IMG/VR virus record: IMGVR_UViG_3300011115_001056
Span: 68,564 to 132,563 of that record
DNA from: a virus
Reading direction: 5' to 3' (one strand)
DNA: 64,000 bases
Each line of letters begins with the position of its first letter. Within the stretch, counting starts at the first letter, position 1. Below the pieces are notes generated by a model. The model was not told the origin of the DNA and did no database searches. It saw only the letters and a list, made by a program, of their open reading frames with translations. Positions 38,812 through 48,680 of this stretch are shown piece after piece. Made by a program: the position numbers and the translations under genes.

Positions 38812-39971
38812 TGAGCAGCAAGGTCAATCGAGAGTTAAGTGATATCTGGAAGCTAAGGCAGAGAGGTAAACAAGACTCAGAGAGACATAAAGAGCTCTTA
38901 AAAAAGGCTATCAAAGAGAAGGGCAAGCATATTATCTCAGAATATAATATTGTCACTTCTGATGGTAGCAAAAAGGTGCGAGTTCCCGTCAAGGTTTTGG
39001 AGCCCTACAAACTAAAGTGGGGTCCATCCAACAAGTCTGATGGGACTGGCCAGGGTCTAGATGGAAAGCCAGGCCAGAAGTACCGTATAGGCAGCGGAAA
39101 GCCACAGCAGGGCTCTGGTGGTGAAGGCGAAGGTGAAGACGGCGAAATGCTTTTCGAGTCAGAGATTACTATCGATGAACTAGTAGATCATCTAATAAGA
39201 GAATTAAATTTGCCGTGGATGGAACCAAAGTCTACTTCTGAAATAGAAGTAGATAATGAGGAGTTAGTCTCTAGGGAGAAGAAAGGTATTTGGCCAAATG
39301 TAGATATGAGAAGAACCGTCATTCAGAATCTCAAGCGTAATGCCTCAAAGGGAGTACCTTACGTTGGAGACTTTAAGAAGGATGATCTTATTTATAAAAA
39401 TTGGGAAGAGCAAAAGGAATATGAGTCCCAAGCCGTAGTCTACCTGATGATGGACATAAGTGGATCCATGACCAAGGAGAGACAAAAGCTAGCAAAGACC
39501 TTTTATTTCTGGATGATTCAATTTATCAAAAGAAGATATAAGAGAATTAAAATTCATTGCATTGCTCATGATACAAAAGCAGTATTTGTTTCTGAGGAAG
39601 AGTTTTTTAAGACATCCGATGCAGGAGGAACTCTTTGCAGCTCTGCCTTTGAAGCTGCATATAATCATATGTCTGTAAACTACGATCCTGCTAGCTGGAA
39701 TATCTATGCTATGGAATTTTCAGATGGAGATAACTGGGGTGATGATAATAATAAGTGTCTAGAGATAATTAAGAAAATGGTGCCTATATGTAGCATGATT
39801 GGCTATGGAGAAGTAGCAGAAGAAGAGCAGCCATCTTGGTCAACACGAGGACTTCTTTCGTCTTTAATTAAAAATGCTTTTATAAAAGAACCAAAGGTAA
39901 TTACTGTAGACGTTAGAAATGATGATGCAGTATTTCCTGCCCTTCAAACTTTCTTTGGGGTGAAAAAATGA
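38811..39971 (+). CDS. yeaH: YeaH/YhbH (DUF444) vWA-domain protein
   Basis: D..RH...K.AIK, Gly-rich linker, ELNLP, MDISGSM (MIDAS), GGT..SSA and FSDGDNW motifs. Confidence 0.9.
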   Translation: MSSKVNRELSDIWKLRQRGKQDSERHKELLKKAIKEKGKHIISEYNIVTSDGSKKVRVPVKVLEPYKLKWGPSNKSDGTGQGLDGKPGQKYRIGSGKPQQGSGGEGEGEDGEMLFESEITIDELVDHLIRELNLPWMEPKSTSEIEVDNEELVSREKKGIWPNVDMRRTVIQNLKRNASKGVPYVGDFKKDDLIYKNWEEQKEYESQAVVYLMMDISGSMTKERQKLAKTFYFWMIQFIKRRYKRIKIHCIAHDTKAVFVSEEEFFKTSDAGGTLCSSAFEAAYNHMSVNYDPASWNIYAMEFSDGDNWGDDNNKCLEIIKKMVPICSMIGYGEVAEEEQPSWSTRGLLSSLIKNAFIKEPKVITVDVRNDDAVFPALQTFFGVKK

Positions 39972-41353
39972 GCAATTTAAATGACAGATTAAAAGAATTT
40001 GAAAGTATGGCAGATGATATTGGATTGACCCATTTTCCAATTGAATTTGAAATAGTTCCTCAAGATGTAATGCTAGAGGTCGTTACCTATGCGCTTCCTG
40101 CTAGGGCACGGCACTGGGTATACGGACAATCATATGATTATCAGAAGTATTCTGATGGTATGGGTTACTCCAAAATCTACGAAGTCATTATGAATAATGA
40201 TCCTTCCTACGCATTTATGCTGGATTCAAATTCTGACACCATCAATACGATGGTAATGGCACACTGTTTTGGTCATAGTCATTGCTTTAAGAATAACTAT
40301 CTTTTTCAAAATACTGACAGAAAGATGGTTTATAATGCAGCAGAGAGGGCACAAAGAATAACAGAATATGTTCAAAGGTATGGTATAGATAAAGTAGAAC
40401 ATACAATGAATATAGCTTTTGCCATAGATAAGCATATTGACTGGTCAAAGGGCGAAAATAGAATGGTCTATGGAAAGCCTAAGAAGATTATAAAAGAAGT
40501 AAAAAAGAAAGAATTTGATGATCTTTTAAATCCAAAGAAGCCTTCAAAGATTGAGATTATTCAAAATGGAAGCTTTCCTCCTCACCCAGAAAGTGATCTG
40601 CTTTGGTTTCTTTCTTCCTATGGTAACTTAGAGGATTGGCAGAAGGATATTTTTGAAATTATTCGTCAGGAGAGCTTTTATTTTTATCCTCAATATTCCA
40701 CAAAGATTCTCAATGAAGGAATCGCCTCTGTTATTCATGCAGAATTCATGTCAAAGCTTGATTCTCTTTCTCCAGAAGAACATCTTGATTTCTGTAGAGT
40801 TCATGAGAGAGTAGTTCAGCCTGGCGGAAATCCATTAAATATTAATCCTTACTTTTTAGGATTTACTATCCTTCAGGACATAAGGAAGCGGTGGGATAAT
40901 TATAAGTCTGCAGGAGAGTCTAGTATATCTGGTATGGAGAAGATGCTTGAGGTCGTATCTCAAGAAGATGATATTTCACTAATCAAAAATTATCTAACCA
41001 AAGAGCTTGTAGAAGAGATGAATCTTTTTGCATATAAGTCTGATAAAGATAAAACTGGAGATACCATCATTACTATCAAAAGTAGAAATCCAGATGATGT
41101 AGCAGAAAGTTTGACCAAAGATATGCATAATTATCGATCACCAGTCATCACAATAGAGAAGGCATCTTCAAATGGGATGGAGCTAATTCATCATCCTCAT
41201 AATGCAAAGACTCTTGATGAAAGAAATCTTTCAAAAGTTATGGAATATATTTATGAGCTTTGGGGCTCTCCAATTGATATGCAAACCATTGATGATCAAG
41301 GAGAAGTTGTTCACCATACCTACGACGAGGATGGATTCTCTGGCGAAGAATAA
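39968..41353 (+). CDS. spoVR: SpoVR/YcgB family protein
   Basis: HW.YG..Y, IYEVIMNNDPSYAF, AHCFGHSHCFKNN, TKILNEG.AS and NPY.LG motifs. Confidence 0.92.
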   Translation: MSNLNDRLKEFESMADDIGLTHFPIEFEIVPQDVMLEVVTYALPARARHWVYGQSYDYQKYSDGMGYSKIYEVIMNNDPSYAFMLDSNSDTINTMVMAHCFGHSHCFKNNYLFQNTDRKMVYNAAERAQRITEYVQRYGIDKVEHTMNIAFAIDKHIDWSKGENRMVYGKPKKIIKEVKKKEFDDLLNPKKPSKIEIIQNGSFPPHPESDLLWFLSSYGNLEDWQKDIFEIIRQESFYFYPQYSTKILNEGIASVIHAEFMSKLDSLSPEEHLDFCRVHERVVQPGGNPLNINPYFLGFTILQDIRKRWDNYKSAGESSISGMEKMLEVVSQEDDISLIKNYLTKELVEEMNLFAYKSDKDKTGDTIITIKSRNPDDVAESLTKDMHNYRSPVITIEKASSNGMELIHHPHNAKTLDERNLSKVMEYIYELWGSPIDMQTIDDQGEVVHHTYDEDGFSGEE

Positions 41354-41787: not shown

Positions 41788-44220
41788 ATGCGAAACACAG
41801 GATATAAAATGACAAAGTTTTTAGATATCGAGATTGATCTGTCCAGAGACAGTCTGTTTGATGAGCTAGGACTGAAAAGACTCAAAGAATCCTATATGAA
41901 GGATGAAGAGTCTTCTCCACAGGAAAGATTTGCTTTTGTATCCAAATCCTTTGGGACAAATCTTGAGCACTCTCAAAGACTTTACGATTATTCCAGCAAA
42001 CATTGGCTAAGTTATTCCACGCCAATTCTTTCTTTTGGTCGTACCAAATATGGACTGCCCATTTCCTGTTTTCTATCATGGATCCCAGATACGGCAAAGG
42101 GCCTAGTGGATACTCTATCTGAAACTAATTGGCTATCCATGCTAGGTGGTGGAGTAGGACTTGGATTTGGAATTCGCTCTGCCGGAGATAAATCTACTGG
42201 TGTTATGCCACATCTTAAAACCTATGATGCATCTTCTTTGGCATACAGACAGGGGAACTGTTACCTTCCCGGCACAGAAATTCTAACATCTTCTGGTTGG
42301 AAGGCGATGGAGCTATTACAGCAAGATGATGTTGTTGCGGTTATTGATGACGACGGAAGTATTTCGTTTGAAATGCCACTAGAGATAGTAGCCGAAAAAT
42401 ATAATGGAAATATCATAAACTTTACAAATAAAACCCGAGGAATAGATATTTCTGTTACAGAAGATCACTCAATGGTTATTGAAAGGAAGATTAAATCTGG
42501 ATGGTCCAAAAGACTAGAAAAAGTTCGTGCTTCAGAACTCAAATTTCATAATGAAGTCAGGTTTTGGACTGCAGCAAAGCCAGCAAATTCTGCCTCTAAA
42601 CTAGATTCACTCACTCGTCTAAAAATTGCAGTTCAGGCTGATGCTCATATTAGGGCTGATGGTGTGTGTGAATTTCACCTAAAGAAAGAGCGAAAGATTT
42701 CAAGGATAAATAAAATCCTTTCAGATTTGAATCTAGAGACATGGCAAAGCGATCATAAGGATGGCACCGTATCTGTATATGCAAAGGGTATGAGTTTCGA
42801 TGGACTAAAGAGTTTATCTTGGATTAATTTATCAAAAGTTACTCCATCAGAAGCTGCAGCAATGCTAGAAGAGATTGCAGAATGGGACGCAACTAGAAAC
42901 AGAGGGCACAGCTTCATATACTTCAGCACCATAAGAGAGAATGCATCCGTAGTTCAATCTCTGGCCGTAATTGCTGGTCGCCCAAGTCGTATCTGCAATA
43001 GGAAGAGACAAGCTCCTCGCTTAAATATGCATTCGGTATTTGTTGGAAATAAAAATTATTTTCTTCTCGAAAAGCTTAAGAGAGAAAATATTCAATATAA
43101 CGGAATGGTTCATTGTTGTGTCGTTAGAACTGGAAAGATTGTCGTCAGGGCTGGAGAGACACCAATTGTTTGCGGCAATACTCGTCGCGGATCTTATGCT
43201 GCATATCTAGATATTTCTCATCCAGATCTAATGATGTTCTTGGACATGAGAAAGCCCACTGGCGATCAGAACATGCGCTGCCGCAATCTTCATCAGGGTA
43301 TCAATATCACTGATGATTTTATGAGAATTATTGAAAAGTGTATGCTTGATCCTGCTGCAGATGATAAGTGGGAATTAAAAGAACCCCACAATGGAGTAGT
43401 AAAAGAAGTAGTGTCTGCTAAGGAACTTTGGCAAAAGATTTTGGAACTTAGAGTTCAAACTGGAGAACCATATCTTCATTTTATTGATACCTCAAATAAA
43501 TTTATGCCTGAACACTTAAAGAAACTGGGACTAAAAATTAGACAGTCAAACCTCTGCTCTGAAATTCTTCTTCCTACGTCAGAAGAAAGAACTGCAGTCT
43601 GTTGCCTTTCCTCTCTAAACTTAGAGAGATTTGATGAATGGAAGGATGAGCCACTATTCCTTCGTGACGTAGCAGAAATGTTAGATAATGTATTGAATTA
43701 CTTTATTAAAAATGCTCCTGATGAAGTAAGTAGGGCAAAATTTTCTGCTATGCGAGAAAGATCGATTGGTGTTGGAGCATTAGGATTCCATGCCTATCTG
43801 CAGCAGAATAAGTTACCGTTTGAGAGTGCTCTTGCTAAGTCAGCAAATATCAGAATGTTTAAGCACATCAGAACAGGACTTAACGAGGCTAATATTGAAC
43901 TTGCAAAAGAAAGAGGTGAAGCTCCAGACGCAATAGGCACAGGGATGAGATTCAGCCACCTTATGGCGGTTGCGCCAAACGCCTGTGTTGTTGGAGAAAC
44001 AAAGATAATTATGTCAGACGGAACAACCAAATCGATAGAGGATATCGGAACGTCTCTCGATATTGACATGAGGTCATTTGACTATCTCACAATAAATACT
44101 GATGATGGATCAACAATGGAACTGCACCTCGGGCAAATGCTATTGATTGAAAGAGATGGCAAGAAAATATCAATAATAGCTGCAGAATTAATAGAGAATG
44201 ATGATATTTTAGAGACTTGA
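41788..44220 (+). CDS. nrdA: Ribonucleotide reductase class I alpha subunit, N-terminal fragment (contains a contiguous intein and ends in a split-intein N-half)
   Basis: ESSPQERF, LPISCF, GGGVG, RRGSYAAYL, TGEPY, QSNLCSEI, AVCCLSS and MAVAPNA motifs; start may be ATG 41809; no ATP cone seen. Confidence 0.93.
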   Translation: MRNTGYKMTKFLDIEIDLSRDSLFDELGLKRLKESYMKDEESSPQERFAFVSKSFGTNLEHSQRLYDYSSKHWLSYSTPILSFGRTKYGLPISCFLSWIPDTAKGLVDTLSETNWLSMLGGGVGLGFGIRSAGDKSTGVMPHLKTYDASSLAYRQGNCYLPGTEILTSSGWKAMELLQQDDVVAVIDDDGSISFEMPLEIVAEKYNGNIINFTNKTRGIDISVTEDHSMVIERKIKSGWSKRLEKVRASELKFHNEVRFWTAAKPANSASKLDSLTRLKIAVQADAHIRADGVCEFHLKKERKISRINKILSDLNLETWQSDHKDGTVSVYAKGMSFDGLKSLSWINLSKVTPSEAAAMLEEIAEWDATRNRGHSFIYFSTIRENASVVQSLAVIAGRPSRICNRKRQAPRLNMHSVFVGNKNYFLLEKLKRENIQYNGMVHCCVVRTGKIVVRAGETPIVCGNTRRGSYAAYLDISHPDLMMFLDMRKPTGDQNMRCRNLHQGINITDDFMRIIEKCMLDPAADDKWELKEPHNGVVKEVVSAKELWQKILELRVQTGEPYLHFIDTSNKFMPEHLKKLGLKIRQSNLCSEILLPTSEERTAVCCLSSLNLERFDEWKDEPLFLRDVAEMLDNVLNYFIKNAPDEVSRAKFSAMRERSIGVGALGFHAYLQQNKLPFESALAKSANIRMFKHIRTGLNEANIELAKERGEAPDAIGTGMRFSHLMAVAPNACVVGETKIIMSDGTTKSIEDIGTSLDIDMRSFDYLTINTDDGSTMELHLGQMLLIERDGKKISIIAAELIENDDILET
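42259..43179 (+). mobile_element. Contiguous intein (307 aa) with a LAGLIDADG-derived endonuclease region
   Basis: AYRQGN|CYLPGTEILT...VTEDHSM...IAVQADA...EIAEWDA...VHCCVV.TG..VVR...PIVCGN|TRRGSY; removal restores RQGNTRRGSYAAYL. Confidence 0.9.
43984..44217 (+). mobile_element. Split intein N-fragment (78 aa)
   Basis: MAVAPNA|CVVGETKIIMSDGTTKSIEDI (block A) through ELIENDDILET, followed by TGA TAG. Confidence 0.88.
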
Positions 44221-44227
44221 TAGCGGC

Positions 44228-44262
44228 GGCTCCTACTAATACAAAAAATAAAGGTAGGAGCC
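44228..44262 (+). promoter_or_regulatory. RNA hairpin sequestering the RBS of the endonuclease gene
   Basis: GGCTCCTAC (44228-36) pairs perfectly with GTAGGAGCC (44254-62), which contains the SD AGGAG for ATG 44271. Confidence 0.75.
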
Positions 44263-44270
44263 ACGGCAGT

Positions 44271-45608
44271 ATGAAGAATAATTTAAATAAAAAAATAGAT
44301 AAAATAAAGTCTTATAACCTTTTTTCCGATCTTGAAATACAGGAGCTTTTAAAATTAAAGTCAACAGAGATTTTAAAAATCTTAAAATGGAAAGAATGTG
44401 CAAAATTTGCCGGTATTGATGTAAAAATATCAGATTACATGAATCATCCAGATTGGAATACCATAACATCAATGTATGATTTTAATTATTACAAAATAAA
44501 ATATTCAAGTTATGACTATCATAAAATATATAATATTTCAAAATCAAAAATAATAAAAAAGAGAGGATCTATGTATGATCCTGAAAATATAGCAAAAAAG
44601 AAAAATATCTCAATAGAAGAGGCAACTCTTCTTTCGGAGAGAAGAAAGGATTCTACAAAAATAACTAAAGAAAATTTGATAAAAAAATATGGACCTGAAG
44701 TTGGCATTATTAAATATCAAGATTTTGTAAATAAATCGATGTCAACCATTGATAATTATAAAAAAAGATATGGTAACGACTGGAAAGAGAGGTGGGGTTA
44801 TTTTTTAAGCACAAGAGACTCCTCAAGCTTGAGTGCCTGCATTTCAAAGTATGGAGATGATGGTGAGAGAATTTTTGCAGAAAGAGTTCTTAAATTTAAA
44901 AAATCATCCGATATAAATTACTATATGGAAAAATATGGTGATGACGAAGGGCTTAAGATCTTTGAAAAAATAAACTCAATGAAGGCAGAGGGCGCAATCA
45001 GATCTTGGTCTTTTGAAGAGTTTAAAAAAAAGAATTATAATAATTCATCAGAAGAAGAGTTAAGGGAAATTTTTAATTTAAAATTAAAAAAAAGAAGCAC
45101 AAAGACAATAGAATATTTTCTTCAAAAAGGCTTCTCTCTAGATGATTCAAAAGAATTAAGGCTTAAGTCAATAGAGAAATTATATAGAAGCTCTGAGAAA
45201 AATTCACCAGTATCAAAAGAATCAATTAGGCTTTTTTCAGCACTGCAATCTGAGTTAAATAGAGTGTGTAAGTTTGGAACAAAAAAAGAAGAGTTATCAT
45301 TAAGATATGATGATAGGCTATATTTTTTTGATTTTTTTGATGAAAAAACAAATACAATAATAGAATATAACGGATCTATTTTTCATGCTCCAGAAAAACT
45401 ATCTATATCAGAAAGAGAGATGTGGAAGAGTAAGTATGGTTTAGGTTGGCACGATGTTAACAAGAAGGACAATCAAAAACTTGATGCGGCCAAATCGGCT
45501 GGGTACAATATTATGGTAGTCTGGGATTATGAAGTAAGGTCCAAGACAAAATTAAAAGAAAAGATAAAAGAGCTTGCAACTACCTTAGGAAGAACAAATG
45601 AAAGTTAG
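44271..45608 (+). CDS. Free-standing homing endonuclease, Vsr-like/EDxHD-type with KYG repeats
   Basis: C-terminal YFFDFF....IIEYNGSIFHA...KDNQK...A...GYNIMVVWDYE; repeated KYGxxG; AT-rich; lies between the split-intein halves. Start ATG 44271 has SD AGGAG. Confidence 0.8.
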   Translation: MKNNLNKKIDKIKSYNLFSDLEIQELLKLKSTEILKILKWKECAKFAGIDVKISDYMNHPDWNTITSMYDFNYYKIKYSSYDYHKIYNISKSKIIKKRGSMYDPENIAKKKNISIEEATLLSERRKDSTKITKENLIKKYGPEVGIIKYQDFVNKSMSTIDNYKKRYGNDWKERWGYFLSTRDSSSLSACISKYGDDGERIFAERVLKFKKSSDINYYMEKYGDDEGLKIFEKINSMKAEGAIRSWSFEEFKKKNYNNSSEEELREIFNLKLKKRSTKTIEYFLQKGFSLDDSKELRLKSIEKLYRSSEKNSPVSKESIRLFSALQSELNRVCKFGTKKEELSLRYDDRLYFFDFFDEKTNTIIEYNGSIFHAPEKLSISEREMWKSKYGLGWHDVNKKDNQKLDAAKSAGYNIMVVWDYEVRSKTKLKEKIKELATTLGRTNES

Positions 45609-45963
45609 AAGTGTGAAATTGAAACAACCTCAGTGGTTTGAATCAGAAAGTAATGTTGAGGTAAAAACATCATCTGGAACTGCAAAAGTAAATAAACTAT
45701 ATTTCAATGGTTATTCAGAAGTATTAGATCTTATTATGAAAAAAGAAGATCTAATTCATACTGCAAGATGCACTGCAAACCACAAATTCCTAACAATAAA
45801 TCATGGGTGGCTCAAGATCATTGAGCTGATTCCAGGAATGGAACTTACGGATGGCTGGTATGTAGAATCTGTACTTGCTACCAGAGAAATTATGCCAACC
45901 TTTGATATAGAGGTCCCAATAACACACGATTATGTTCTTGAAAACGGTGTGGTGACACATAAT
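45598..45963 (+). mobile_element. Split intein C-fragment (122 aa) containing blocks B, F and G
   Basis: MKVRSVK...VKTSSG..KV.KLYFNG...CTANHKFLT..GW...EL..G...PTFDIEVP..HDYVLENGVVTHN|SSS. Confidence 0.9.
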
Positions 45964-46503
45964 TCCTCATCAATTTTGATGGGAAATACTTCTCCTTCAA
46001 TTGAACCATTCAAGGCCAATTGTTATAGACAGGATACACTTTCTGGTGCATTTATGAATAAGAATAAATATCTTGATGCAATTATTAAATCAAAGTGTAA
46101 TGAGAATAAAAAGCTTGATTATCAAGATGTTTGGTCGAGCATTATTTCAAGCAACGGGTCTGTTCAGCACCTAGAAATCTTAGATGATTGGACAAAATCA
46201 GTCTTTAAAACTGCAATTGAAATTGATCAGAGATGGATTGTAGAGCACTCGGCAGACCGTCAGCAATTTATTGATCAGGGACAATCAGTTAACCTGTTCT
46301 TTATGCCAGACTCTAATGTAAAATATCTTCATGCAGTTCATTTTCTAGCATGGAAGAAGGGGTTGAGAACCCTCTACTACTGTAGATCTGAAAAGATTAT
46401 TAGGGCAGATAATGTTTCTCAAAAAGTAGAGAGAAATATAATTGAAGAAATAGATATGAAACAAATTGCTGAAGGCAACGAATGCCTGGCATGTGAGGGA
46501 TAA
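45598..46503 (+). CDS. nrdA: Ribonucleotide reductase alpha subunit, C-terminal fragment, led by the split-intein C-half
   Basis: After the intein: SSSILMGNTSPSIEP, GSVQHL, VFKTA.EIDQ, IDQGQSVNLF, LYYCRS and C-terminal ECLACEG. Confidence 0.93.
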   Translation: MKVRSVKLKQPQWFESESNVEVKTSSGTAKVNKLYFNGYSEVLDLIMKKEDLIHTARCTANHKFLTINHGWLKIIELIPGMELTDGWYVESVLATREIMPTFDIEVPITHDYVLENGVVTHNSSSILMGNTSPSIEPFKANCYRQDTLSGAFMNKNKYLDAIIKSKCNENKKLDYQDVWSSIISSNGSVQHLEILDDWTKSVFKTAIEIDQRWIVEHSADRQQFIDQGQSVNLFFMPDSNVKYLHAVHFLAWKKGLRTLYYCRSEKIIRADNVSQKVERNIIEEIDMKQIAEGNECLACEG

Positions 46504-46504
46504 A

Positions 46505-47107
46505 GTGTTAGATACTATTTGTGATGTTTTAAAGGAATCATATAGAAGAGAATGGATTACAACTAGGGATGGCAACGCATCAATTAGAATGTACGGACAG
46601 CCATGGTTCCATGTAACTCCGTCTGGAACAAGAAAGAACCTTTTAAATTCCGATCTTTTAATCAAACTATCTTTACCAGATTTATTAAGAGATTGGGACA
46701 AAGATGGTGAACAGAAGTTTGCCAAAGGACTAAGTCCAACTGGAGAACTTCCTATGCATCATTTTCTGCAACAAAGTCATAACAAAACTAGGATGGTACT
46801 TCACCTTCATCCCACCTATACTATTGCTGCAATGCATAAGGGAGTTGATCTAATTCAGCTGGCAGCGGACTTTCCAGAGTTAAAAAGATATACTAAGGTA
46901 GGGCCATCGGCTCCAATTATTGAGCCCGTATCTATGGAGTTGGCACATGCCGTAGTAAAGCATATTGGACTTCAAGAGAACGGAGAGGTACTATATGATA
47001 TAGTCGGTCTGGATCGGCATGGCGTAGTTGCAATCGCAGATGATCCTTGGTCGGCGTTTGAGCACATTGAAAGGTTGGAGCATATTTGTAAGATCTATCT
47101 AAGCTAG
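46505..47107 (+). CDS. Class II aldolase/adducin family protein
   Basis: WITTRDGNAS, VTPSG, PTGELPMH, VLHLHP and HGVVA motifs; probable GTG start at 46505. Confidence 0.82.
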   Translation: MLDTICDVLKESYRREWITTRDGNASIRMYGQPWFHVTPSGTRKNLLNSDLLIKLSLPDLLRDWDKDGEQKFAKGLSPTGELPMHHFLQQSHNKTRMVLHLHPTYTIAAMHKGVDLIQLAADFPELKRYTKVGPSAPIIEPVSMELAHAVVKHIGLQENGEVLYDIVGLDRHGVVAIADDPWSAFEHIERLEHICKIYLS

Positions 47108-47115
47108 GAGATAAA

Positions 47116-47694
47116 ATGTTAGAAGTGGTTGTAGGATGCATGTTTTCTGGAAAGTCTGAAGAGCTAACAAGACGGTTGCGCCGTGCAAAAATTGCAGGTC
47201 TAAATGTTGTTGCATTTAAGCCGGCAATAGATAATCGGTATGACGCAGAGAAGATTGCAACACATTCTTCAGCCACCTTTGAAGCAAAGACCTTTAGGAA
47301 CTTTGAAGATTTAATTAATAAACTAATGTCTATGAGACAAACTAATGGGGATCGGTTTCCAGATGTCATAGGAATTGATGAAGCTCAATTCCTACCAAAA
47401 GACTTTGTAGCATTTGCAGAAATGCTCGCAAATTCTGGATCCGAAGTAATTATAGCAGGTCTAGACATGGATTACTTAGGAAAACCGTTTGGACCAATTC
47501 CAGAGTTGATGGCGATTGGAGACAAGGTTATAAAGTTAAGTGCTATTTGTGTTGCTGAGGACGAAAGCGGTAAAATTTGTGGAGAGCCTGCAACCCGATC
47601 CTATAGGCTGGCTGCAAAGAATACCGGGGAGCTTATCCAGGTTGGTACTACAGACTCGTATCAAGCAAGATGCAGAAAATGTTGGAATAAATAG
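47116..47694 (+). CDS. tdk: Thymidine kinase
   Basis: GCMFSGKSEEL, KPAIDNRY, IGIDEAQF, AGLDMDY...PFG and Y.ARCRKC motifs. Confidence 0.95.
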   Translation: MLEVVVGCMFSGKSEELTRRLRRAKIAGLNVVAFKPAIDNRYDAEKIATHSSATFEAKTFRNFEDLINKLMSMRQTNGDRFPDVIGIDEAQFLPKDFVAFAEMLANSGSEVIIAGLDMDYLGKPFGPIPELMAIGDKVIKLSAICVAEDESGKICGEPATRSYRLAAKNTGELIQVGTTDSYQARCRKCWNK

Positions 47695-47702
47695 GACTAA
47701 AA

Positions 47703-48680
47703 ATGAAGGCAAAGAAATTAAAGATTACCGAGGAACGTACTTACTTTAAGCCATTTAACTACTCTTGGTGTTATGAGGCTTGGCTGCAGCATGAGCAAGC
47801 ACACTGGCTTCACACCGAAGTGCCAATGCTTGAGGATGTAAAGGATTGGAAGAACCGCCTCTCAGATAAAGAGAAATATTTTTTAACAAATATATTCCGT
47901 TTTTTCACACAGGGTGATATTTCTGTCGCTGGAGCATACGTGAAGAATTATCTTCCAGTATTTCCACAGCCAGAAACAAGAATGATGCTTCTTGGATTTG
48001 CGGCTAGAGAGGCTCTTCACATTGCAGCCTATTCACATCTCATTGAAACTCTGGGTATGCCAGAGTCTACCTATAATGAGTTTCTTCAATATGCCGAAAT
48101 GAAGGAAAAGCATGATTATGTCGAAAGTTTTATCGCTCAAGATGAAGATACAATAGCTCAGCAGATTGCAGTATTTTCTGCCTTTACTGAAGGTATGCAA
48201 CTATTCTCCTCCTTTATCATGCTACTAAATTTCCCAAGACACGGTAAGATGAAGGGAATGGGGCAGATCATTTCTTGGTCAATAGCTGATGAAACATTAC
48301 ATTCGGAATCAATGATAAAATTGTTTAGAGCCTTCATTGAAGAGAATCGTCATGTCTGGAAAGATGAGCTAAAGTCACAGATCTATACCATTGCTACCAG
48401 AATGGTTGAGCTAGAGGATCAGTTCATCGATCTTTCCTTTTCAATGGGAACAATGGAAAATCTAACTGCAGAGGATGTTAAGAAATACATTAGATACATT
48501 GCTGATCGTCGTCTAATATCACTTGGACTAAAGGGAATATTTAAGATTAAAAAGAATCCTCTACCGTGGGTAGAAGAAATTATTAATGCTCCAACTCATG
48601 GAAACTTCTTTGAAAACAGAGTCACTGACTATGCAAAGGGTGCTTTGACAGGAACTTGGGGCGATGTTTGGGCTGGCTAA
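47703..48680 (+). CDS. nrdB: Ribonucleotide reductase class I beta subunit
   Basis: FKPFNY.W, FRFFTQGD, REALHIAAYS, FTEGMQLFSSF, DETLH and NFFENR.TDY motifs. Confidence 0.95.
   Translation: MKAKKLKITEERTYFKPFNYSWCYEAWLQHEQAHWLHTEVPMLEDVKDWKNRLSDKEKYFLTNIFRFFTQGDISVAGAYVKNYLPVFPQPETRMMLLGFAAREALHIAAYSHLIETLGMPESTYNEFLQYAEMKEKHDYVESFIAQDEDTIAQQIAVFSAFTEGMQLFSSFIMLLNFPRHGKMKGMGQIISWSIADETLHSESMIKLFRAFIEENRHVWKDELKSQIYTIATRMVELEDQFIDLSFSMGTMENLTAEDVKKYIRYIADRRLISLGLKGIFKIKKNPLPWVEEIINAPTHGNFFENRVTDYAKGALTGTWGDVWAG

Follow-up and report, generated by a model that had tools for sequence, protein, structure and literature searches.

How might a phage gene that is interrupted within an intein by a homing endonuclease gene still yield a single protein, when the intein is divided at an unusual position and carries additional sequence exactly at the break? 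The question is posed by the ribonucleotide reductase gene nrdA in a stretch of 64,000 nucleotides (nt), here called the window, of the IMG/VR virus record IMGVR_UViG_3300011115_001056. The window spans positions 68,564 to 132,563 of the 132,563-base record, whose completeness is estimated at ~30%. Two nrdA open reading frames (ORFs) flank a free-standing endonuclease gene; the upstream ORF ends in an N-terminal intein fragment (IntN) of 78 amino acids (aa), and the downstream ORF begins with a C-terminal fragment (IntC) of 122 aa. The answer that we prefer, and regard as rather probable, is that both fragments would constitute a working natural split class 1 intein that rejoins the phage NrdA by trans-splicing, with an early catalytic split after block A and a clasp derived from a dead canonical split junction. 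The terms "tail" (IntN residues 33-78), "head" (approximately IntC residues 1-8), and "clasp" (tail plus head) are labels coined in the present analysis. L-numbers designate loci of relatives with DNA, and P-numbers designate proteins of relatives. The intein-bearing features of the window are the following.

41788-44220, plus strand: nrdA 5' ORF, 810 aa; ends in the 78-aa IntN and contains a separate full-size cis intein
43984-44217, plus strand: IntN, 78 aa, CVVGETK...DDILET; stop codon at 44218-44220
43984..44079, plus strand: IntN residues 1-32, block A with Cys1 plus linker; TIGR01445 on residues 1-25, colinear with contiguous relatives
44080..44217, plus strand: IntN residues 33-78, the tail and N half of the clasp (hhalign, hmmsearch, pN/pS)
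45598-46503, plus strand: nrdA 3' ORF, 301 aa; the 122-aa IntC first, then the 3' part of nrdA
45598-45963, plus strand: IntC, 122 aa, MKVRSVKLK...VVTHN, then SSS; start of the nrdA 3' ORF
45598..45633, plus strand: IntC residues 1-12, basic head (~residues 1-8) and the four native linker residues KQPQ; MKV invariant in 13/13
45634..45963, plus strand: IntC residues 13-122, remaining HINT domain with the post-block-A strands and blocks B, F, and G (PF14890, TIGR01443, AlphaFold2 [AF2], Foldseek, tblastn)

Position of the catalytic split

The initial annotation, whose coordinates for IntN were exact, had reported block A but no TxxH motif in this fragment, and profile comparisons confirm it: a match to TIGR01445 is confined to residues 1-25 (profile positions 1-25 of 83; E value of 0.0034, below the cut-off) and covers block A only. 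Cys1 directly follows the sequence ...AVAPNA and is invariant in all eight IntNs of the family. IntN residues 1-32, which are colinear with the first 32 to 35 residues of contiguous relatives, are the sole catalytic part contributed by IntN. The working block B is located in IntC together with blocks F and G, as had also been annotated. IntC residues 19/20-72 match the block B region of Pfam Intein_splicing (PF14890; profile positions 30/31-79 of 155), with T59 and H62 in the motif CTANHKF, and residues 101-122, which end in H121-N122, match the C-terminal motif TIGR01443 (21.6 bits; cut-off of 15.6). T59, H62, H121, N122, Ser+1, the start MKV, and W13 are invariant in 13/13 family members.

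The proposal that IntC restarts in the N-terminal lobe is borne out by tblastn: each of the 17 matching phage records, all of them from Campylobacter phages, has at this nrdA site a contiguous mini-intein that is colinear with IntC residues 10/13-122 (27-31% identity). Moreover, the first ~35 residues of two of these contiguous mini-inteins correspond to IntN 1-32. In this alignment to contiguous NrdA inteins at the same site, which the initial annotation had suggested, IntN 1-32 and IntC 13-122 together account for one whole mini-intein, and IntN 33-78 plus IntC 1-8 (~55 aa) are extra sequence placed exactly at the break.

The class 1 features present comprise Cys1, a block B TxxH (in IntC, not in IntN), His-Asn followed by Ser+1, a HINT fold, and continuous homologues without intein. 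Among the latter, L007 is unbroken at the junction (...MAIAPNA SSSIICGNTSPSIEPFKAN), and L007, L008, L009, and L018-L021 read straight through AP(N/T)x|S. With respect to the split, the break after block A and an IntC containing the remaining N-lobe motifs plus blocks F and G correspond to the atypical (TerL or S1-type) arrangement. The very short IntN of that type (11-37 aa) was not observed; the seven split-form IntNs comprise 77-79 aa, and the window IntN has 78 aa rather than 25-37 because of its conserved tail of 46 aa. Nor does the locus show the canonical arrangement of the DnaE or gp41-1 type, with a live block B in IntN and an IntC of 33-54 aa that carries blocks F and G only.

Ancestry of the tail and the head

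The tail of the window has a net charge of -8, and the head (~IntC 1-8) has a charge of +4. A profile of the tails aligns with the profile of canonical IntNs over 45 ungapped columns up to the last residue (hhalign score of 34.0, probability of 88-90%, E value of 2-3e-6), a score that is reached by 0/200 column shuffles (mean of 9.4, standard deviation of 2.1, maximum of 17.6). Most of the signal resides in the last 22 tail residues (score of 22.5, reached by 0/100 shuffles). The profile of the whole IntN aligns end to end with canonical IntNs (hhalign probability of 95%, E value of 2e-8), with a 35-column gap exactly at the post-block-A strands. On the level of individual sequences, IntN 35-77 of the window and IntN 69-111 of L013 share 43 ungapped aa (BLASTP E value of 2e-4); the IntN of L013 (112 aa) contains block A, the following strands, and CTANHKFLV and ends in ..YELEENDDIVEI. 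A hidden Markov model (HMM) of the tail, applied to 150 listed representatives, yielded seven matches at a domain E value of <=1e-4, each of them at a true region from block B to the end of the lobe. These matches include P0036 and P0100, the latter being a canonical split IntN that ends in ..NHKFLVNRNNNKVWIRADEIKENDDIVTI, and they include none of the 12 representatives of the host clade. Accordingly, global alignments gave a mean BLOSUM62 score of 46.2 for the tails versus the block-B segments of the other clade and of -0.2 versus those of the host clade. In the register of TxxH the tail reads HLGQ, and the Thr or the His is retained in 0/8 tails. The head resembles the native first C-lobe strand of the other clade, which is MKVKSIK in the contiguous P0061 (..ELEENDEVVLFAEHFMKVKSIKEAG..) and MKVKKI in the IntC of L013, so that IntC indeed starts in the manner of a canonical IntC.

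These comparisons modify one claim of the initial annotation, according to which the end of IntN is a duplicated, catalytically dead block B. The dead block-B-like copy stands, but it is not a duplicate of the intein's own block B: profiles of IntN or the tail compared with the family's own IntC profiles gave hhalign probabilities of 0.2-1.1%, and a recent internal duplication is therefore rejected. By homology, the tail is a catalytically dead copy of the segment from block B to the C terminus of a canonical split IntN, originating from another intein clade at the same nrdA site. Since the head has its counterpart in the same clade, tail and head together are, as far as the alignments tell, what is left of a canonical split junction, positioned behind block A of the host intein. 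The nested junction remnant, with an acidic tail and a basic head in an otherwise complete mini-intein, had been proposed at the outset and is upheld by the common end point of the tail and the IntNs of L013 and P0100 and by L023, which is devoid of the segment.

The homology of the tail is visible only against close canonical relatives and not in general profile libraries; no HINT match on the tail was obtained with Pfam, NCBIfam, or PDB sequence profiles. The sole library matches, staphylococcal toxin beta-grasp domains (E values of 0.026-0.08), were treated as a chance similarity of beta-hairpins.

Selection and structural models

In comparisons of the window with L006 and L012, the proportion of synonymous differences (pS) is saturated (0.75-0.86). 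The proportion of nonsynonymous differences (pN) amounts to 0.26-0.27 in the tail (pS of 0.75-0.81) and to 0.07-0.10 in the head (pS of 0.83-0.86); the block A part (0.30), the IntC core (0.22), and the exteins (0.11-0.15) serve for comparison. Values of pN that far below a saturated pS indicate purifying selection on the protein, including the tail and the head. The layout also outlasts the loss (L006) and the decay (L022) of the endonuclease gene.

Folded alone with AF2, IntC gave a confident HINT domain for residues 12-122 (predicted local distance difference test [pLDDT] of 84.7) with a disordered head (pLDDT of 54), and IntN was poorly ordered (mean pLDDT of 57.6; residues 69-78 below 50). 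A Foldseek search with the IntC model returned 18 PDB matches at E<=0.001, with inteins at every listed rank, including VidaL (6vgv) and Cat (6dsl). The joint folding of IntN and IntC, a check named in the initial annotation, predicted their association, with an interface score (ipSAE) of 0.91 (median of three runs) versus 0.00 for the best of three controls. The mark set for this score is reached by 58/80 solved complexes and 2/110 mismatched pairs, counts that are only rough here because custom alignments were supplied. The runs agree in at least 98% of contacts, with a partner pLDDT of at least 93. The modelled interface includes tail residues 35-43, 49, 67, and 69-75 and all of head residues 1-9, and the Cys1 strand (IntN 1-13) touches IntC 21-23, 57-59, 101-102, and 112-114. 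Taken together with the conservation, the model suggests that the clasp probably serves to dock the two intein fragments.

Family members and allele states

The IntC-NrdA layout of 301-307 aa was found in 12 protein clusters (62-98% identity) among 39 candidates, and the 78-aa IntN was found in four further proteins (2/69 and 2/4 candidates). An exhaustive profile search gave 265 matches at E<=1e-3. Among the representatives listed, 58 reach the W13 region, and 10/58 are long IntCs that begin at the first residues of the protein, with heads including MKIKSIKK and MKIKKISS. The tail-plus-head layout occurs in four deep lineages with IntC identities of 28-46%, in the following states.

Window and L012: tail and head, with endonuclease gene
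L006: tail and head, without endonuclease gene; 24 nt between IntN stop and IntC start
L022: tail and head, with a 116-aa endonuclease remnant
L026: tail and head, with endonuclease gene
L027: contiguous intein of 192 aa with an in-frame fusion of tail and head, ..ACEIAENDI-P-TVKKIKKAEKQW..

The in-frame join of L027 leads from the tail end to the head start (..ENDI-P-TVKK..), which implies that both must be neighbours in space. L023-L025 are contiguous 149-aa inteins without the extra segment and are the closest relatives of the split L022 (62% identity in the block A part and 71% in the core). A single nrdA site is thus found in many states, i.e., intein-free, contiguous, contiguous with a fused clasp, canonically split, and early split with a clasp, the endonuclease gene being present, absent, or decayed.

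Some further relatives deserve mention. The IntC-NrdA ORFs P0032 and P0038 begin 27-32 residues before the conserved Trp, in block A or the linker, and have no head of the canonical type; they seem to be early splits without a head and may follow a third natural way of splitting at this site, in which a very short IntN does without a clasp, although no IntN partner of either was seen. In L010 (160-1437), a contiguous relative of the intein is located in another ribonucleotide reductase-like gene; its post-block-A loop contains ~50 aa of inserted, charged sequence unrelated to the clasp, which shows that this loop tolerates insertions. At the thiyl-radical site, the nrdA 5' ORFs of L006 and L012 are interrupted by an additional full-size intein (..QSNL CVSGDQRV...VITHN CSEI..), so that the nrdA of L006 contains three inteins; this intein is absent from the window, where the sequence is QSNLCSEILLP. 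In L013 (4482-7885), nrdA is in three pieces and has two canonical split inteins, one at the thiyl site with a GIY-YIG gene and the other at the window's site with a 365-aa endonuclease; this endonuclease has an HNH-like C terminus, and its N-terminal repeats match those of the window endonuclease (29% identity, E value of 1e-6).

Direct searches added little to this set. Megablast of the locus against phage records gave no match, and single-protein IMG/VR scans with IntC and IntN gave nothing, or block A only. A scan with P0022 retrieved intein-less alleles only. When P0029 and P0025 were compared with phage records by tblastn, the matches covered exteins and a number of contiguous inteins, and no IntN partner turned up. 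For P0022, P0023, P0025, P0028, P0029, P0051, and P0053, the IntN partners themselves were not seen; L022, L026, and L027 represent these lineages.

Competing explanations

Several observations weigh against a docking clasp inherited from a split junction. The direct pairing of tail and head is inferred from a co-fold that gives interface residues and not pairs, and as solved split-intein complexes exist, the high score may in part echo structures already known to the method. On its own, the first, block-B-like part of the tail is marginal (score of 15.0, reached by 1/100 shuffles), albeit in the same register. L023, which has no clasp, is closer to the clasp-bearing L022 than L022 is to any other clasp bearer, which calls for either a loss or a transfer of the clasp. 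From lineage to lineage, tail identity rises and falls with the identity of block A and the core, indicating that the clasp is old and has co-diverged, without a direct trace of a recent transfer. The tail of L022 is nearly neutral (net charge of -1; 0 in the last 15 residues), and charge attraction is therefore not universal. If P0032 and P0038 are early splits without a head, the clasp is perhaps not required for an early split. The segment is, moreover, present in one contiguous intein, L027, and may be an ancestral surface insertion that was split later. The initial annotation had named the occurrence of the segment as ordinary sequence in contiguous homologues as evidence to the contrary. 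Taken literally, this was found once; we read L027 as a fused clasp, and a clasp-sized extra is present in no other contiguous or canonical relative that could be assessed among the 58 listed representatives reaching W13 (Cys1-to-Trp spacing of 28-45 aa in 21/58 by regular expression; 23/58 by eye, none with ~90 aa; the fragments P0084 and P0119, which could not be judged, were left out).

Part of this evidence would suit an explanation in which the extra 55 aa are an old, lineage-specific surface beta-hairpin of the N lobe, without junction ancestry or docking role. The endonuclease would have landed in its tip, and assembly would proceed via the block A strand alone, as in TerL inteins. The contiguous L027, the insert in the same loop of L010, the divergence of the tail in step with the rest of the intein, the apparently headless early splits P0032 and P0038, and the marginal first part of the tail all speak in its favour. 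We nevertheless consider it unlikely, given that the tail is ungapped and co-terminal with canonical IntN ends at a score that no shuffle reaches, that the tail HMM recovers true block-B regions in seven representatives, that the head equals a native C-lobe strand, and that tail and head, both with pN far below pS, are part of the modelled interface. That the intein parts might serve only as glue between the NrdA halves finds a precedent in phage Aeh1, whose NrdA works as two chains with tails that arose at the insertion of an endonuclease gene (PMC3045599). Such a role is very unlikely for the present locus, where the splicing residues C1, T59, H62, H121, N122, and S+1 are invariant across saturated synonymous divergence, the break falls within AP(N/T)A|S, a conserved stretch that is continuous in intein-less relatives, and a HINT domain of 200 aa left in place would be a large insert in the barrel. 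Least credible of all is a canonical split intein whose tail would be the working block B and pair with the last ~40 residues of IntC, the first ~80 residues being a redundant leftover. The end-to-end alignment of IntN with canonical IntNs, apart from the 35-column gap, and the retention of His48 in 5/8 tails could be quoted for it. However, HLGQ replaces TxxH in register, with Thr or His retained in 0/8 tails, Arg or Tyr stands in place of H48 in L022, L026, and L027, T59, H62, and the whole 122 aa of IntC are conserved in 13/13 (pN of 0.22), and the models show an IntC that folds into a HINT domain by itself, with Cys1 set beside IntC 57-59 in the co-fold.

Endonuclease gene and neighbourhood

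The remaining features of the locus are listed below.

41788..43983, plus strand: N-extein (5' part of nrdA); Pfam PF02867 (5.3e-66) and PF00317 (2.6e-09)
44228..44262, plus strand: RNA hairpin over the AGGAG ribosome-binding site (44256-44260) of the endonuclease gene (RNA fold)
44271..45608, plus strand: free-standing homing endonuclease gene, 445 aa from the ATG at 44271; phrog_22677 (1.2e-18) and Vsr-like profile matches
45964..46503, plus strand: C-extein (3' part of nrdA), begins with SSS; PF02867 (1.2e-28), profile positions 391-522

In a profile of five relatives, the C-terminal domain of the endonuclease matches 3r3p (I-Bth0305I; E value of 6.4e-4) and the Vsr structures 1vsr, 1odg, and 1cw0 (~7e-3 to 1e-2), and DUF559 was found in 3/5 relatives (best E value of 1.3e-7). 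The single endonuclease sequence by itself gave only 0.14. The profiles identify the C terminus as Vsr-like, i.e., of the I-Bth0305I type. Homologues are located at the same place in L012 (60% identity), L026 (30%, E value of 5e-37), and L022 (remnant, 38%), and a more distant one (25.5%) is present in the canonical split L028. The RNA of positions 44205-44290 folds with -25.5 kcal/mol (z score of -5.18; 0/200 shuffles fold as well), and AGGAG is buried in the hairpin. The ATG of IntC is preceded by AGGAAG and overlaps the endonuclease ORF by 11 nt.

The flanks of L006 and L012 are identical; the two loci differ, beside the presence or absence of the endonuclease gene, in a patch over the second half of the tail (L006 4880-4976 versus L012 1850-1945), where they diverge sharply (pS of 0.55, pN of 0.19). 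L006 retains the last ~17 nt of the endonuclease ORF as the ribosome-binding region of its IntC. The patch is likely a co-conversion tract, and the difference looks as if the endonuclease gene had been gained or lost and the flank co-converted along with it.

The ribonucleotide reductase barrel is represented in both nrdA ORFs (Pfam). As judged by eye from the translations, nrdA is preceded by a SpoVR-like ORF and a small cupin-like ORF (from 39968 to 41353) and followed by an aldolase-like ORF, thymidine kinase, and nrdB (46466-48680). The nrdA 5' ORF contains a second full-size intein, the cis intein CYLPGTE...VCGN|T (~42256-43179, residues ~157-470), which ends in Gly-Asn and not in His-Asn. 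The relative P0018 (497 aa) is free of this first cis intein and reads continuously (..AYRQGN TRRGSY..), so that the cis intein represents a presence/absence polymorphism.

Proposed mechanism and origin

Canonical split inteins are pictured to assemble by "capture and collapse." For the early split with a clasp that we prefer, the three ORFs would be translated separately, and tail and head, disordered when alone, would be drawn together, in the majority of lineages by charge, and zip up to a small beta-sheet that resembles the strands on either side of a canonical split site. The raised local concentration would allow the 32-residue block A piece to slot into the groove of the preformed IntC. 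Class 1 splicing with Cys1, T59 and H62 of IntC, H121-N122, and Ser+1 would follow and yield ...APNA-SSS..., and the first cis intein of the nrdA 5' ORF would also have to be spliced in cis.

With respect to its origin, the layout might go back to a Vsr-like endonuclease gene that moved, together with coding flanks, from the canonical site of one intein into the post-block-A loop of a contiguous intein. A recombination between split and contiguous alleles, as suggested in the initial annotation, is probable in view of the homologies of tail and head and the contiguous relatives without the segment. The direction of evolution may have followed one of three candidate paths, i.e., the nested insertion of a cassette, a canonical split intein to which the post-block-A strands and block B were added, or descent from a contiguous ancestor that, similar to L027, already had the clasp. 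A more far-reaching idea, which we hold to be possible but doubtful, is that the clasp, made from a dead split-intein junction, acts as a portable heterodimerisation module that is sufficient by itself and was brought along by the homing endonuclease gene within its own mobile cassette, so that the endonuclease would carry the antidote to the break that it makes. In this case, the endonuclease could colonise ectopic sites inside inteins, early (S1-type) splits with a built-in clamp would form a new stable class, and the clamp could be transplanted onto engineered split inteins of low affinity.

Early-split inteins are prized for protein labelling and semisynthesis and are rare in nature. The review PMC11766414 lists inteins of this kind, with a short IntN, as having low to medium affinity. 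The present family adds a third layout, in which the parts of an early catalytic split are connected by a vestigial canonical junction. Provided that the clasp functions as in the model, it would be a ready-made affinity module of ~55 aa, and the family would be a set of possibly orthogonal natural variants. The series of allele states at one nrdA site also makes it possible to follow how inteins are broken by homing endonuclease genes and how such a break is rendered harmless, with a parallel in the tails of Aeh1 NrdA.

Comparison with known systems

Terminase is the only host of natural early-split inteins in the literature found (PMC2677866, PMC11766414). The window shares the break after block A with these TerL-type atypical splits, i.e., the terminase locus of Dassa et al. 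2009, AceL-TerL (25+104 aa), and GOS-TerL (37+115 aa) (PMC2677866, PMC11766414). The terminase IntC of Dassa et al. likewise comprises 122 aa with all N-terminal motifs except the first and stems from a metagenomic phage source (PMC2677866), and the model of the window IntC resembles 6vgv (VidaL; template modelling score of 0.67, root mean square deviation of 2.8) and 6dsl (Cat). The window differs from the TerL types in the host gene and site (nrdA, AP(N/T)A|S), the IntN of 78 aa, and the canonical-type head of IntC; no tail or clasp is described for TerL inteins in the consulted text of PMC2677866 and PMC11766414. In the full-text literature searched, which excludes most papers of subscription journals, no account of a nested dead junction or clasp in a split intein was found.

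The fractured genes reported by Dassa, London, Stoddard, Schueler-Furman, and Pietrokovski in 2009 combine a split intein with a free-standing gene for an endonuclease of the Vsr-like or GIY-YIG kind, e.g., gp41-1, gp41-8, NrdJ-1, IMPDH-1, and NrdA-1 to NrdA-7 (PMC2677866). Two host ORFs on the same strand, an endonuclease gene between the intein halves, and a Vsr-like nuclease are common to these genes and the window, as are a hairpin over the ribosome-binding site of the endonuclease gene and an overlap between endonuclease and IntC (11 nt in the window and 6-69 bp in fractured genes) (PMC2677866). The NrdA loci of Dassa et al., however, occupy the thiyl-radical site and have an IntN of 88-105 aa, an IntC of 33-54 aa, and the canonical split point, whereas the window differs in site and split point and has a nested junction remnant (PMC2677866). 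Canonical split inteins at the window's own nrdA site are represented by L013 (IntN of 112 aa, endonuclease gene, IntC of 36 aa), P0100, and P0084. Their kinship is evident from IntC 13-65 of the window versus IntN 39-88 of L013 (38% identity, E value of 1e-10) and from IntC 89-122 versus the IntC of L013 (41%, 4e-10). In these three relatives, block B is live in IntN and there is one junction, whereas the window has a dead copy of the junction after block A and the live block B in IntC.

In phage Aeh1 (Crona et al., Nucleic Acids Res 2011), NrdA-a and NrdA-b have oppositely charged tails that arose at the insertion of the endonuclease gene and are needed for function (PMC3045599). In both Aeh1 and the window, nrdA was broken by a mobile endonuclease gene; the Aeh1 tails involve no intein and no splicing and have no detectable relatives, whereas those of the window are recognisable intein fragments predicted to serve trans-splicing (PMC3045599). 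Engineered S1-type split inteins (Ssp DnaB or DnaX S1) have an 11-aa IntN and are listed with low affinity (PMC11766414). They agree with the window in that a short block A piece complements a nearly complete IntC, but they are man-made, and the natural form in the window appears to bring its own affinity module (PMC11766414).

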